A stretch of 64,000 nt of DNA. Source: Eledone cirrhosa (lineage: Eukaryota). The stretch is taken from contig OZ024759.1 in NCBI GenBank assembly GCA_964016885.1, forward strand, positions 32,860,001-32,924,000, given 5' to 3'. The notes below the pieces were generated by a model. It had not been told where the DNA came from. It ran no database searches and was given only the letters and a program-made list of their open reading frames with translations. This document shows positions 7,413-57,329 of the stretch, piece by piece. A program made the position numbers and the translations under genes. Position 1 is the first letter of the stretch; each line of letters begins with the position of its first letter.

Positions 7413-7608
7413 ATAGGAACAAGTATGACCCCGACGGCAGAGCTCAAGCCGTTTCGACGGCTAATTCTGAGTCCAGAATTAGCCGTCGAAACGGCTTGAG
7501 CTCAGCCGTCTGGGTCATACTTGTTCCTATTACCCACTCTACTACCCCAAGTATTGAGTACTTTGGTGCGTTATGGTCCATCTGGTTCCTTACCACATTT
7601 CCTTCGTT
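7413..7608 (+). mobile_element. Fold-back family A element (palindromic head 7413-7530, tail 7531-7608)
   Basis: Near-perfect palindrome; HHR 3' half GAAA 7488-7491, stem III cggc/gccg, GTC 7508-7510; (TA)n flanks. Confidence 0.85.
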
Positions 7609-10600
7609 ATATATATATATATAACATTTCTTTTACAACCTTGCCACCACGAAGGTGGCCGGTCAAAACTGTATTAGAAATTAAGAGAAAGAGAAATATA
7701 TATATATATATATATATATATATATATATATATATATATATATATATATATATATATACTGTGCCAAATTCCGTTTAGCCAGAAGTACAATCAACACTGT
7801 AGCTAGAGTTGAAACCACTTAAACAATACTTGATCATATTTTAGTTCGATGTAAATATTGTCAATAAAATATTGTATCACGTGATAATGATCTATGGAAA
7901 CACAGCAGCTGTTGAATGTTTACAATGTACATTGTGGTGTTCCATATAAAACACTTGAACGGTTCTTGCTTCAAGTTGTAACAAACAGTGCCTAGCTCAT
8001 TATATATATATATATATATAAATATATATATATATATATATACATATATGTATGTATGTATATATATATATATATATATGTGTGTGTGTGTATATATATA
8101 TATATATATATATATATATATATATATATATATATACACACACACATATATATATATACACACACACACACACATATATATATATACATATATATATATA
8201 TATATTCATATATACATATATATATATATATAAAAATAAATATACATATATATATACACATATATATATTCATATATACATATATATATGTATGTATATA
8301 TATGTGTATGTATATACATATATATATATATACATATATACATATATATATATATGTATGTATATATATATGTGTGTATATATATATATATATATATAAA
8401 TATACACATATATATATACACATATATATATATATATATATATATACACACATATATACATATATATATATATATATATATATATATGTATAAATATAAC
8501 TATGTATACACACACACATATATATATATATATAATGTATTACATATGGTCTACAAACATAAAATAATATTACGCAGTCAGTGAGTGAGTCTCTGAAATG
8601 TTAATCTTTCTTACAAAGTATGACACGAAGAAAACATCTCCCCCACCCGTCTCTTTCCATCTTCCCTACCTACACCGCCATAGCACCGCTCCTTTCCTAC
8701 ATCTTTCTACATCTTCCAACTTTCGCCATCTCTATTCCATCATCTCCATCTTTCCACCACCACCACCACCACCACCACCACCACCACCACCACCACCACC
8801 ACCCCCATTCCACTATCTCCATCTACCTCATTCTTCTCACCTCTATCTTCATCCCGACGACGCCTCCGTCTCCCTCCATCTTCCCACACTAAGCCCCCCC
8901 CCCCATCATTCATCTTCCTACATCATCTACCGCCTTTTCTCTTTCCTCTTCCTACGGTGATATTACCCGACATTTAATTCTTTACAGTAAAAAAATAATA
9001 AATTTTAAATTGCTTCTTTACTGTCATTTCAATGTCGATGATTCTAGATTCGATCTCTCGCTCTCTTTATTTATCTATCCTCGAGCTAACATCGTGTTAG
9101 AAGACAAATATAGGTCTTCGCAAATTAGTCACGATATTGTTGCTGAGAAGTAATGCCGGCTCATGATATTATCCTTAAGGATTTCCTGTATTATCTCTTC
9201 CATTAATAATCAAGAGTAGAGAGCCGAAGGCATTGGCAGGGAGTGGGGGAAGTGATTAGTTTTAGTTTAAGTTTGGAATCGAAACCAATTTGAAAATTTA
9301 GGTGGAGTTGCCTGCTCATGTAGAACATACTTTTCTAAAATCACGAGAACAAAAACAAAAATAAAAAAATAATAATAAAAGGAAAAAAAAAATTATAAAA
9401 CAAATGACAAAAATTAATCATTAAGACTTATGTATCGATTTCTAGCAAAAATCACGAATTATTGTTGGTTAAGATGTTTAGGTTCCAGGCTCGATTTCAC
9501 TGAATGTCACTGTGATATATCATAGCATAGACACCTAGACCTGACTAAAGCATTGTTAGTGAAACTATATATATATATATAATTATTAAATAATTAAATA
9601 GCTCTGTAGCATACATAGAGCACTCTTCTTTCCTTTAGCCTTCCTACGGAAATACTTTGTATATATATATATATATATATATATATATATATATATGTGT
9701 GTGTGTGTGTGAATGTGTGCTCGTGTAAGTGCATATGCCTGTGTGTTTAAATTTCAAACTTCATTATTTTAAATCTACCTTCAATTCACCTTAAAAAATG
9801 CTCATAAATAGACATACGCTTATCTATCTATCTATCCATCTCTCTCTGTTATATATATATATATATATATATATATATATATATATATATATATATATAT
9901 AGTAGAATAATCGAGTATCGAAAAATCGGCGCACGAGTTCACGATAAACAAAATTCGAAATGAGCGGCAGAGGGCTCAATAATTCAGATAAATCAGAGCT
10001 ATAACTATCGTTAAAATACCGACACACATAGAACATGTCTAAAATCAACCATACGACCGAAAAATTACGATCTGGAAGATTCGGGACACTCAGATAAAAT
10101 ATCAATAAATCAATAAATCAAATGAATGTAAAAAGCATACCCGGACCCGCTAGAAAGATGGTAAATCTAGCTTCTTATATATATATATATATATATATAT
10201 ATATATATAAACATATATATATATACATATATATATATATATATATATACATATATATATATATATATACATATATATATATGTACATATATATATATAT
10301 GTACATATATATGTACATATATATGTATATATATATGTACATATATATATATATATACATATATATGTACATATATATATATATATACATATATATGTAC
10401 ATATATATGTACATATATATATGTACATATATATTTATATATATATACATATACATATATATACATTTATATATATACATTTATATATACATATATACAT
10501 ATACATATATTACATATATATAAACATATATATATACATATATATAAACACACATATATATATATATATATATATATATAATATATATATATATATATAT

Positions 10601-10638
10601 ATATATATATATATATATATATATATTTATATATATAT

Positions 10639-10824
10639 AGGGAAATGTATAACCCCGACGGCAGAGGTCAAGCCATTTCGACGGCTATTTCTAGACTAAC
10701 AGTCTAGAAATAGCCGTCGAAACGGCTTGAGTTCTGTCGTCGGGGTTATACATTTCCCTTCCCTAAGTATTGAGTACTCTGGTACGTTATGGTCCAACTG
10801 GTTCCTTACCACACTTCCTTCGTT
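10639..10824 (+). mobile_element. Fold-back family A element
   Basis: Palindrome 10639-10759 plus tail ending ccttcgtt, inside (TA)n; short deletion in the tail. Confidence 0.85.
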
Positions 10825-12414
10825 ATATATATATATATATTTATATATATATATATATATATATATATATATATATAAATGCACTAACTTTTGCGCATTT
10901 CTTTAGTACTTTTTTAAATATTTATATTTCAGTCTGTCTGGTCTGGACCAGTCTAGTCTTAATAGTTTTCTTTTGTCTATTGTTTCTGATATTTACTATT
11001 CCAAAAAATATTTATTTTCGAACAAATTCAACAGAATGTTAATTTTGTTGTATATTCTTGCAAGTTGAAAGTAAAAAAACAGAAAGCAGCAGGATTCGTC
11101 TGTAGTTTGTAATCACCTTTGTTAAACACATTTATATAAATAGAAATTCTCAAAATTAAGTTTGATCACATCTCTCTCTCTCTCTCTCTCTCTCTCTCTC
11201 TCTCTCTCTCTCTCTCTCTCTCTCTCTCTCTCTCTCTCTCTCTCTCTCTCTCTCTCTCTCTCTCTCTATATATATATATATATATATACTCCTCTATATA
11301 TACACTGTGTTCGAAAAACATTTATACACACTTCAGCACCATTCTAATCAAAGTATATATACATTTTTTTACGAGATCCTGTATATACTCTTTCACTATA
11401 TATATATACCCTCTCTCCTCTGTCTCTCTCTTTCTTTCTCTCTCTCTCTCTCTCTCTCTCTCTCTCTATATATATATATATATATATATATTATATATAT
11501 ATATATATATATATATATATATATACTCCTTTTATCAATTTGACGATACGATAATAGATAAAGAAATACAATGATAAATATAAAAAACAAACAATAAGGT
11601 AAGACAGTATTAACACATTGGCACACCTGCAACTTATTGCCAAGAAATTAAAAACTCCAGGAAACCTTACACCCCCCCCCCCCATATATATATATATATA
11701 CACACACACACACGTATATATATATATATATATATATATATATATATATATATATACATACATACTGCTTAGTAACTGTTTATATATAAACACTCTTTTA
11801 GACACTTCAATGCATATAAACAGATTCTTCCAGAAACTCCACATATTTAGACACATCTAAAAACCTTATACACTGAACTGAACAGTTTCTAGAATATTTA
11901 TACATCAAGTAAAATCCATAAAGATAAATGGCAAGCCTAAGGCAAAGCAAACCTTGATCCTAAAGGGACATAATTATATGTTACATGGTATCCGATGCTC
12001 TACTGATACTGCCAATCCACCACCCTAATAATAACAATAATAATAACAATAATTGTTATTAATACCAGTGGTAGCAAAATCATAAATACATTCGAAAACA
12101 AACATGGCTGATTAAAAAGAAAAAGAAAAGACCATCTTTCTAAACCATTTTCGTTTCTTATGTATCTACGAACTTAATTTGTTCAATACCCTGGTTTTTA
12201 CTACATTATATATATATATATATATATATATATATATATTATATATATATATATATATAATATATATAATATATATTAGAAAGTGAGGTTTTTTTTACAA
12301 AATGAAAAATAACCGAGGTGTCCTACACGAGTGAAAGTATAAAGGAAAAGAGATGAAATCGAAAATGCAACTGAAGTCTTATTTAAAAAAAAATATATAT
12401 ATATTTATTTGGTT

Positions 12415-55943: not shown

Positions 55944-56138
55944 AACGAAGGAAATGTGGTAAGGAACCAGATGGACCATAATGCACCAAAGTACTCAATA
56001 CTTGGGGTAGTAGAGTGGGTAATAGGAACGAGTAGGACCCCGACGGCTGAGCTCAAGCCGTTTCGACGGCTAATTCTGGACTAAAATTAGCCGTCGCAAC
56101 GGCTTGAGCTCAGCCGTCGGGGTCCTACTCGTTCCTAT
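55944..56138 (-). mobile_element. Fold-back family A element
   Basis: Near-perfect palindrome ~56022-56138 plus tail; (TA)n flanks. Confidence 0.88.
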
Positions 56139-56324
56139 ATATATATATATATATATATATATATATATATATATATATATATATATATATATATATATAT
56201 ATGCAGTGTTTTAAGTGTGTGCTAAACAAAAACAGTCAGTCTTATCTGTGTTTGTTGTTTTCTGTATAGAAATATGATTGCAAACTACTCGCTGACCTGT
56301 GTGACTTGCATTTCATCGAGAAGT

Positions 56325-56525
56325 TGCATGGTAAGAATGTTCGGCTTCGGATTTTAAGGACATGTTTCTGTTTGAAGGAGAGAGCGCTGCCTCATGTACC
56401 TGCAGAAACCACTTTTTTCACATTGCTCCTGTCCATTGAGCTGTGTAAAAACGTGATACACCTGTAATTCAAAGGGCCAGCCTTGTCAAACATTATGTTA
56501 CGCAAAATTCTCAGAGAGAACTACC
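56325..56525 (+). mobile_element. Degenerate SINE type 2
   Basis: ttcacattgctcctgtccattgagctg...aagggccagccttgtca. Confidence 0.5.
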
Positions 56526-57260
56526 TATATCTTTAGGAAACGTGGCCCCCTGCAAGTTAGGTTCATGACCAAGCTGTTCCAGGTGTTCGAACAAAAAAAT
56601 ATCACCCTGCTCATCTAATTAAAGTCCAAGTGGCTGAGCATTCTAAACATACAAGTACCGCAATGCATTTTATCTGAGTCACTAACGTTGCTACACGTTC
56701 GTCGCCATATTTCCATATTTATTATATATTATGCTGTAGAACGAATTGCTTCTAATAAACCTTCGTTTGATTTTGTATAAGTCTAAAGACTTCTATATAT
56801 GAAGTCGTTTATGAAGTAGCAAATAGTAATAGCTTTCTTCTTGTTAAATCATTAAATCTAATAGGGTTCTGCCCAGCGCCATTACTTTCCCTTTAAAGTA
56901 AATTGCGAAGACGTTGAAAAGTGTGCGTTGAAATTAGCAGAGACCGGTCGAAATCGCTAACCGAAACGAGGAAAGAATAATGAATAAGGAATTCATACTC
57001 AGACACGCTCCTTAACATGGTAATGTGTATAATTGATAAGACATCAAAGGTTGTAAGCAAGTAAGTGTTCTAAGCGATTAGACCATTTTCATTTCTTTAA
57101 CAGAAACAAGCGATTGCATATGAGGCGAAAGGAAGCCATTTTATTTATTCACTTATTTATTTATTTATATGTTCCTGAGCAACATATGTCGTTTCACGAA
57201 GCTCCTTTCTTCTATCAGACGATTGCAGTCGGCAGATAATATCAGCAATGAAAAGACCAA

Positions 57261-57329
57261 CTATTTCTAGACTAGAAATAGCCGTCGAAACGGCTTGAGC
57301 TCTGCCGTCTGGGTCATACATTTTCCTAT
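57261..57329. mobile_element. Family A remnant: one arm plus hairpin tip
   Basis: ctatttctag a ctagaaatagccgtcgaaacggcttgagctctgccgtctgggtcatacattttcctat joined to (TA)n. Confidence 0.8.

Follow-up and report, generated by a model that had tools for sequence, protein, structure and literature searches.

A hairpin-headed repeat in TA microsatellites of Eledone cirrhosa, likely derived from the 3' end of a Hydra-type Penelope-like retroelement

In a 64,000-nucleotide stretch of Eledone cirrhosa DNA (assembly GCA_964016885.1, contig OZ024759.1, positions 32,860,001 to 32,924,000 of the forward strand; hereafter the window), we analysed a short non-coding repeat residing in (TA)n, here called family A, which is real as described in an earlier, sequence-only reading. 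An intact copy consists, in order, of (TA)n, an inverted arm, a turn, a sense arm, a one-sided tail and again (TA)n. Family A very probably has a Penelope-like origin, an identity that escaped the sequence-only reading, in which the known Penelope-like unit of inverted copy plus tail was missed; family A is likely the 3' end of a Hydra-type Penelope-like retroelement. We call it Hydra-like rather than a Hydra member because a canonical hammerhead near the 3' end is lacking, and file its stubs as derived pieces rather than autonomous members because they are non-coding. The inverted arm was probably made anew at most insertions, and our preferred account, to which we assign a probability of roughly 0.45, is that it would result from two primings, one per target strand, rather than from snap-back of a cDNA. 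The architecture itself has already been described, so that family A is an added example and a lead, and no new class.

BLAST and a profile search recovered seven copies or scraps in the window (nhmmer E-values from 1e-48 to 6e-13), the number first reported, six of them between positions 7413 and 57329 and the seventh outside that range. Copy 1 (7413-7609, + strand) has an intact head, in which a 57-bp inverted, tail-less arm (7413-7469), whose outer end runs into (TA)n, is followed by the turn AGTC (7470-7473) and the sense arm, together reaching up to CCTAT at 7530 (7470-7530), and then by a one-sided tail of 79 nt (7531-7609), whose terminal TAT (GTTAT, 7609) again runs into (TA)n. Copy 2 (10637-10825, +) has both arms complete at 59 bp, three extra nucleotides at the turn and a tail start short of about 15 nt; copy 3 (17995-18189, -) holds the most divergent arm pair (18135-18189 and 18074-18128); copy 4 (50703-50865, -) combines a full sense arm and tail with an inverted arm of only 25 nt and an asymmetric junction; and copy 5 (55943-56138, -) has arms at 56085-56138 and 56022-56075. 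In copy 6 (57261-57329, -), a remnant, the inverted arm, the turn and 13 nt of sense arm give way to unrelated DNA. Copy 7 (59-110, +) is a 5'-truncated, tail-only scrap between TA runs that keeps the family A 3' terminus, an instance of 5' truncation with a constant 3' end. TA runs flank six of the seven copies on both sides, and copy 6 on its intact side only.

An inverted arm is present in six of the seven copies, including all five window copies that have a sense arm, and the arms of the four intact heads (copies 1, 2, 3 and 5) measure 57, 59, 55 and 54 bp, with 2, 4, 5-6 and 1 mismatches, respectively. The sense segment starts with AGTC(C/T)AGAA in all four while the turns differ, as had been noted from the start, and the same is true of the remnant ending at 57329; the five turns are each one small change away from a single consensus, and in the four intact copies as well as in the remnant the turn reads toward the tailed arm. 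None of the 70 TRF rows of the window contains tandem family A units, and no partial tandem or direct pseudo-long terminal repeat (pLTR) arrangement occurs among the seven window copies. This anatomy corresponds to published Penelope-like units: an inverted, 5'-truncated copy adjoining the 5' end and a 30-40 bp tail at one end are reported for such elements in PMC8557442, with (TA)n as the target of Hydra and Naiad elements; PMC3846280 describes the unit of inverted copy and one-sided tail, and inverted pLTRs and 3' extensions are given as curation hallmarks in PMC8969392.

The sense arm carries a hammerhead-like 3' half, which in copy 1 spans 7488-7510 (+) and comprises GAAA (7488-7491), helix III (7491-7496 with 7504-7509), a 7-nt loop containing a palindrome, and a GUC triplet (7508-7510), without CUGANGA. 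Helix III has 6 bp, or 5 bp where the T allele occurs at 7504. Among 3000 dinucleotide shuffles per arm, 0.03-0.2% contain the combination of GAAA, helix III and GUC, a post hoc figure in that the motif was picked after inspection. Its description as a 'textbook' stem III was overstated, since 5-6 bp and a 7-nt loop compare with the 1-2 bp and palindromic loop of 2-4 nt usual in metazoan hammerheads (PMC4209133). The absence of CUGANGA from every copy holds: the window has 24 CTGANGA matches, but no family A copy contains one, none lies 8-38 nt upstream of GAAACGG, and with one mismatch allowed the seven copies yield a single match, off the core position, with no 3-8 covariant core. A complete type I hammerhead, with CUGANGA box and helix I 5' strand, is accordingly missing from the copies, and pattern scans for relatives or CUGANGA-bearing parents found none in metagenome contigs, prokaryote genomes and viral contigs, as expected for an animal repeat. 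Rfam returned no hammerhead among the 150 of 328 matches listed for the window, the one for family A and the seven for family B, a neighbouring family introduced below; this blank is uninformative, because the full family B core likewise went undetected by Rfam. A decayed CUGANGA at the start of the arm, and a permuted type II hammerhead that would draw on the tail, were both rejected as unsupported: helix I would come to 2 bp; there would be two core changes, and helix II would be absent. In the favoured view, family A copies would not be ribozymes. The spacing between GAAA and the tail motif described below, at 59 nt in family A, is similar to that in family B (53 and 55 nt) and in the ends of Hydra-2_Amil and Hydra-2_Ajap (61 and 69 nt, counted by eye), and the GAAA of family A is therefore the positional equivalent of the hammerhead GAAA, in support of the hammerhead-related position first proposed for it. 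In an inner 6-bp hairpin centred on GAAA (7477-7496), the 5' strand has the same sequence as the helix III 3' strand; an earlier fold-back may have left this hairpin as a scar, or it may be a structural switch.

Within the tail lies a stem-loop with a 2-nt AU bulge (7536-7561, +, in copy 1), which family A has in common with families B and C of the window and, by eye, with Hydra-clade elements. Family B is found both with and without an inverted arm: a hairpin copy (122-320, +), with arms at 122-186 and 187-251 that differ by about 10% and each hold a full hammerhead core, ends in a tail of about 69 nt with the stem-loop, and an un-inverted copy (41227-41364, +) begins at helix I of a complete Hydra-type hammerhead. 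Both are TA-flanked and begin at helix I, and the arms, at about 60-65 nt, are like those of family A. The predicted fold of the family B hammerhead has the core CTGAAGAT, TGAA, a helix III of ACAG/CTGT, cleavage after GUA and a 6-bp helix I, a layout that fits the Hydra-clade rows in File S2 of PMC8557442. Family C is represented by a tail-like insert of 78 nt between TA runs (9582-9659, +). Seven matches to the tail pattern occur in the window where 0.09 would be expected, and every one lies in a TA-flanked element of one of the three families; the pattern forms an outer stem of 4-5 bp, the AU bulge and an inner stem of 2-4 bp, with an A-U/G-C exchange as covariation in the outer stem and inner pairs that differ by family (pairs were counted in fixed register, as MAFFT misaligned the stem-loops). 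By eye, the same stem-loop is found in three of six Hydra consensi in the supplement of PMC8557442, located at the end in Hydra-2_Amil and Hydra-2_Ajap and at the start in Hydra-1_Ajap, where it follows the hammerhead and a TAT-rich site. Its hosts are thus three otherwise unalignable window families and Hydra elements of coral and sea cucumber. A 9-mer search of that supplement gave nine matches, four of which have the upstream stem strand, while the arm motifs have no match there. A literature search returned no description of the tail stem-loop or of family A; Repbase and Dfam were outside this search, and the family may already be catalogued. Next to these families, a TA-flanked tail-like piece at 15365-15420 (-) contains no more than the 11-nt 3' motif; the opposite strand reads CTGAAGA..GAAA at 15456.

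Being small, high-copy and non-coding, and sitting in TA microsatellites, family A also recalls MuTAnT (PMC4486113), and could be a TA-targeting DNA element that includes a palindrome internally, either a miniature inverted-repeat transposable element (MITE) of the MuTAnT/Micron kind or one of Helitron type, its hammerhead likeness being due to chance, as would suit the lack of a hammerhead among the Rfam matches listed. We consider this very improbable: the termini of family A are not inverted repeats of each other, so that the MITE-type terminal inverted repeats at both ends are missing, the palindrome is one-sided, 5'-truncated scraps retain the 3' end, and the tail motif is common to a full-hammerhead family and to Hydra elements.

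The arms go with their own copy rather than with their side. In the arm-versus-arm comparison that had been proposed as a check, the two arms of a copy differ at 12 of 221 positions (5.4%), while arms of different copies differ by 11.8% (left-left), 11.8% (right-right) and 11.1% (cross pairs), and the alignment of the window copies has no column specific to left or right arms. At five read-polymorphic sites, 22 of 24 within-copy comparisons are concordant, as against a mean of 44% and a maximum of 87.5% over 265 re-pairings; the arm tree itself is poorly resolved, with the arms of copy 2 as sisters (0.88) and the remainder as a ladder. Private variants had been claimed to be shared by the arms of two copies, which stands for the rarer alleles of copy 2 (7516 T, 3%; 7521 A, 8%) and fails for copy 5, whose alleles are common family-wide (in run X13, 7517 C in 4086 of 10835 reads and 7522 C in 3876 of 10803) and, being in 36-38% of reads, mark subfamilies. 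Two mismatches between arms, at 7504 in copy 1 and at 7517 in copy 3, fall on common family alleles. To explain the six copies, three or four independent homogenisations are the minimum, a number that speaks for frequent rebuilding and is still compatible with a few hairpin masters.

Reads from four sequencing runs were matched to the reference segment 7470-7609. The matching reads numbered 22,084 (of 12.5 million) and 22,819 (of 12.8 million) in two restriction-site-associated DNA (RAD) runs, counts from which no copy number follows, and the other two runs gave 17,258 contigs (same species label) and 2 (another organism). The inverted arm had been described as ending at CCTAT, where it merges with (TA)n, and in the two RAD runs the match to the reference stops at exactly 7530 in 3959 and 3720 reads, which continue as (AT)n; these may be inverted arms or tail-less sense copies, and their ratio of about 1:3 to reads entering the tail is not interpretable. 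The inner boundary of the one-sided tail is fixed family-wide, in window copies and reads alike, and even copy 2, which has an earlier TATA within the arm, extends to the usual CCTAT site. Strand switches make up 13 of the 15 joints listed (from 16). Ten joints have one side within 7470-7476, on the opposite strand, and the other at 7507 to 7567; in six of these ten, the other side lies within the tail (7534-7567), which is absent from the left arm of the canonical hairpin. Seven of the ten share no letters at the joint, and the remaining rows one to three. Copy 4 is the window's example of an asymmetric joint. The AATT at 7477, probably a restriction cut of the library, is the end point of 7177 and 7366 molecules, and with a reference that starts at 7470 the reads do not reveal the DNA upstream of the arm; loose ends of low agreement at 7476-7477, maybe ligation chimeras, were excluded from the evidence.

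The same reads hold two observations of a different kind. In 2283 and 2488 reads, loose ends at 7524 and an insertion at 7518 mark a divergent subfamily; its helix III region is altered, and a GACT after the cleavage-like triplet is complementary to the AGTC at the arm start. In run X13, T>C changes affect 19 of 46 T sites within 7470-7609 and A>G changes 4 of 28 A sites (p = 0.02, post hoc), an excess that could reflect strand-biased editing or subfamily structure.

If a few hairpin-bearing masters were transcribed and retrotransposed whole, with the cDNA end joining the target via the flanking TA, the likeness of the arms would come from a few founding events and conversion, and frequent mutation of the palindrome centre would vary the turns. 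Inheritance of this sort accounts for the constancy of both the sense start and the left end, the polarity of the loop, the absence of CUGANGA from every copy, the derivation of five turns from one consensus by single small changes and the inverted arm of all five window copies with a sense arm. It is nevertheless an unlikely account, as six copies hold at least three or four haplotypes concordant in both arms and no left-specific column, six listed joints couple the arm start to inverted tail sequence, and family B has hairpin and non-hairpin forms of one element. The joints are not easily obtained by deletion from one inherited hairpin, and to this extent the first proposal, that the hairpin is rebuilt, has held up; snap-back, the route it proposed, is one of three mechanisms.

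By that route, a cDNA primed at the tail end would reach the RNA 5' boundary or an old helix II hairpin, fold back and copy itself, and then be cut or jump to the target at CCTAT, the fold replacing the CUGANGA half at each insertion. In its favour, PMC3846280 puts forward self-priming as the source of Penelope palindromes, each of the four intact copies has its turn on the tailed arm, and the ten asymmetric joints hold one side at 7470-7476 while the other varies. Moreover, the 7 nt before the CGAA core resemble a helix II strand, so that by its layout the turn may be loop II, and the earlier phrase that the 'fold-back replaces the 5' half' of a hammerhead would then be literally true. Yet annealing-based priming is not evident from joints most of which share no letters, a separate rule is needed for the stop at 7530, the two mismatches at common alleles are unpredicted by self-copying (though 2 of 14 is within chance), and an un-inverted CUGANGA parent was found neither in the window nor in the pattern scans, the data searched including no whole host genome. 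We therefore hold snap-back to be possible and distinctly less probable than two primings.

Under our preferred account of two primings, a Penelope-like protein with reverse transcriptase (RT) and GIY-YIG domains would bind the RNA, probably at the bulged stem-loop, and nick both strands of the TA repeat. One 3' end would prime at the UAU of the tail end and the other at an internal UAU 79 nt upstream (7530); both cDNAs would extend to the RNA 5' boundary near AGTC and be joined head to head, giving arm, turn, arm and tail. The CUGANGA half would lie outside the copied part or have been lost in the family founder. A TA primer can pair with TAT, the sequence at which each end of family A lies. 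The fixed CCTAT end is better explained by a second priming site, as seen in vitro with a different element: the purified Penelope-like protein cuts the two target strands of AT-rich DNA and extends each of them, and it begins reverse transcription at two internal positions of the RNA that delimit the tail, hammerhead cleavage being unnecessary (PMC11167929). More speculatively, and doubtful at present, the AU-bulged stem-loop may set the second RT start and hence the tail, with family A as a highly successful non-autonomous passenger that folds back at what was once helix II and no longer carries the catalytic half of its hammerhead.

Several results weigh against this reading, in its mechanism or in the identity behind it. 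The polarity of the turn toward the tailed arm is not predicted by a symmetric joining of two cDNAs, as it is by snap-back or inheritance, and the turns, each one small change from the consensus, could all go back to a single inherited loop. Near-symmetric fold-back joints are missing from those listed, even with about 2,300-2,400 reads per run covering 7470-7474, for which a filter effect or depletion of hairpins are both possible reasons, and the cut of the reference at 7470 may bias joint positions there. As to identity, the 78 open reading frames (ORFs) of the window contain no RT or GIY-YIG fragment, and no autonomous partner was found; none of the octopus ends compared (Hydra-1_Obim, Naiad_Obim and Naiad_Ovul) match family A; and the 79-nt tail exceeds the 30-40 nt of the papers. 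One of the four supplement matches with the upstream stem strand is the 3' untranslated region (UTR) of Naiad_Mmer, so the stem-loop is not exclusive to Hydra elements; its folds are individually weak (z from -1.5 to -1.9), and RNAalifold gave no consensus structure, on a poor alignment.

The origin of the inverted repeats and tails of Penelope-like elements, and the role of their hammerheads, are stated as open questions in PMC8557442. Family A, as an abundant short family with two fixed ends, scorable junctions and half a hammerhead, would be good material for separating two primings from snap-back, and the shared tail stem-loop, a concrete candidate binding site of the Penelope-like protein, is a fresher lead than the architecture. 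If the passenger reading were true, family A would be a natural knock-out, in which the ribozyme is dispensable for Penelope-like mobility in vivo.

The window has further features outside these families. A complete hammerhead-like motif with a 4-bp helix I, a 5-bp helix II and a short helix III is found at 6590-6655 (-), within a TA-flanked segment (6455-6778), and a palindrome at 35806-36144 with 161-bp arms and a 17-nt spacer has CTGATGA..GAAA in each arm. Perfect palindromes at 39156-39371 and 51855-52255, with arms of 105 and 198 bp and loops of 5-6 nt, are fold-back insertions or assembly artefacts. A 41-bp tandem repeat of about 155 copies occupies 43.7-50.1 kb, and copies of one tail resembling that of a short interspersed nuclear element lie at 30387-30826, 7250-7340 and 38250-38560, two of them inverted and 272 nt apart. 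TA microsatellites and a tail of this element class would fit an octopus host. Weak Pfam matches below the cut-off comprise an endonuclease/exonuclease/phosphatase domain at 3416-4120 (-), likely a remnant of a long interspersed nuclear element, and a C2H2 zinc finger at 33276-33473 (-).

Compared with known systems, family A shares with the insertion units of endonuclease-positive (EN+) Penelope-like elements (PMC8557442, Fig. 2 legend; PMC3846280; PMC8969392) the head-to-head inverted arm at the 5' side, the one-sided tail, 5' truncation and a target duplication masked by the microsatellite; unlike these, it has no ORF, only about 140 nt of element, its longer tail and a near-fixed 5' boundary. 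With the minimal type I hammerheads of pLTRs and non-LTR retrozymes (PMC4209133; PMC7229834; bioRxiv 10.64898/2026.07.22.740005, the latter two covering retrozymes), it has in common short, dispersed, hammerhead-related pieces and a palindromic loop III, as well as dual motifs on opposite strands, which PMC4209133 attributes to truncated elements; family A differs in having the 3' half only and a more extended helix III, as well as in the absence of tandem arrays from the window, and lacks the tandem units, each with a complete type I hammerhead, by which non-LTR retrozymes are recognised. Naiad elements (PMC8557442) likewise target (TA)n, have an inverted copy and a tail and lack a canonical hammerhead, some carrying an 'HHR_half_core', but this is the CUGANGA half, located in the 3' UTR, and cephalopod Naiads are described as long inactive. 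The Hydra clade (PMC8557442) is defined by its protein (DKT, RWK, no CCHH), whereas family A is known here from non-coding stubs alone, and nearly all Hydra elements have the CUGANGA that family A lacks. Still, the two have in common the (TA)n target, which is also that of Naiads and so not diagnostic, and the order of GAAA, helix III, cleavage triplet, TAT-rich end site, bulged stem-loop and end; Hydra elements have been recorded from an octopus, and the family B hammerhead fits their layout. Finally, PAc, a Poseidon element of Anolis (PMC11167929) and thus of a different clade from the Hydra type, resembles family A in that two fixed RT start sites bound the tail, the target is AT-rich and both strands are extended.

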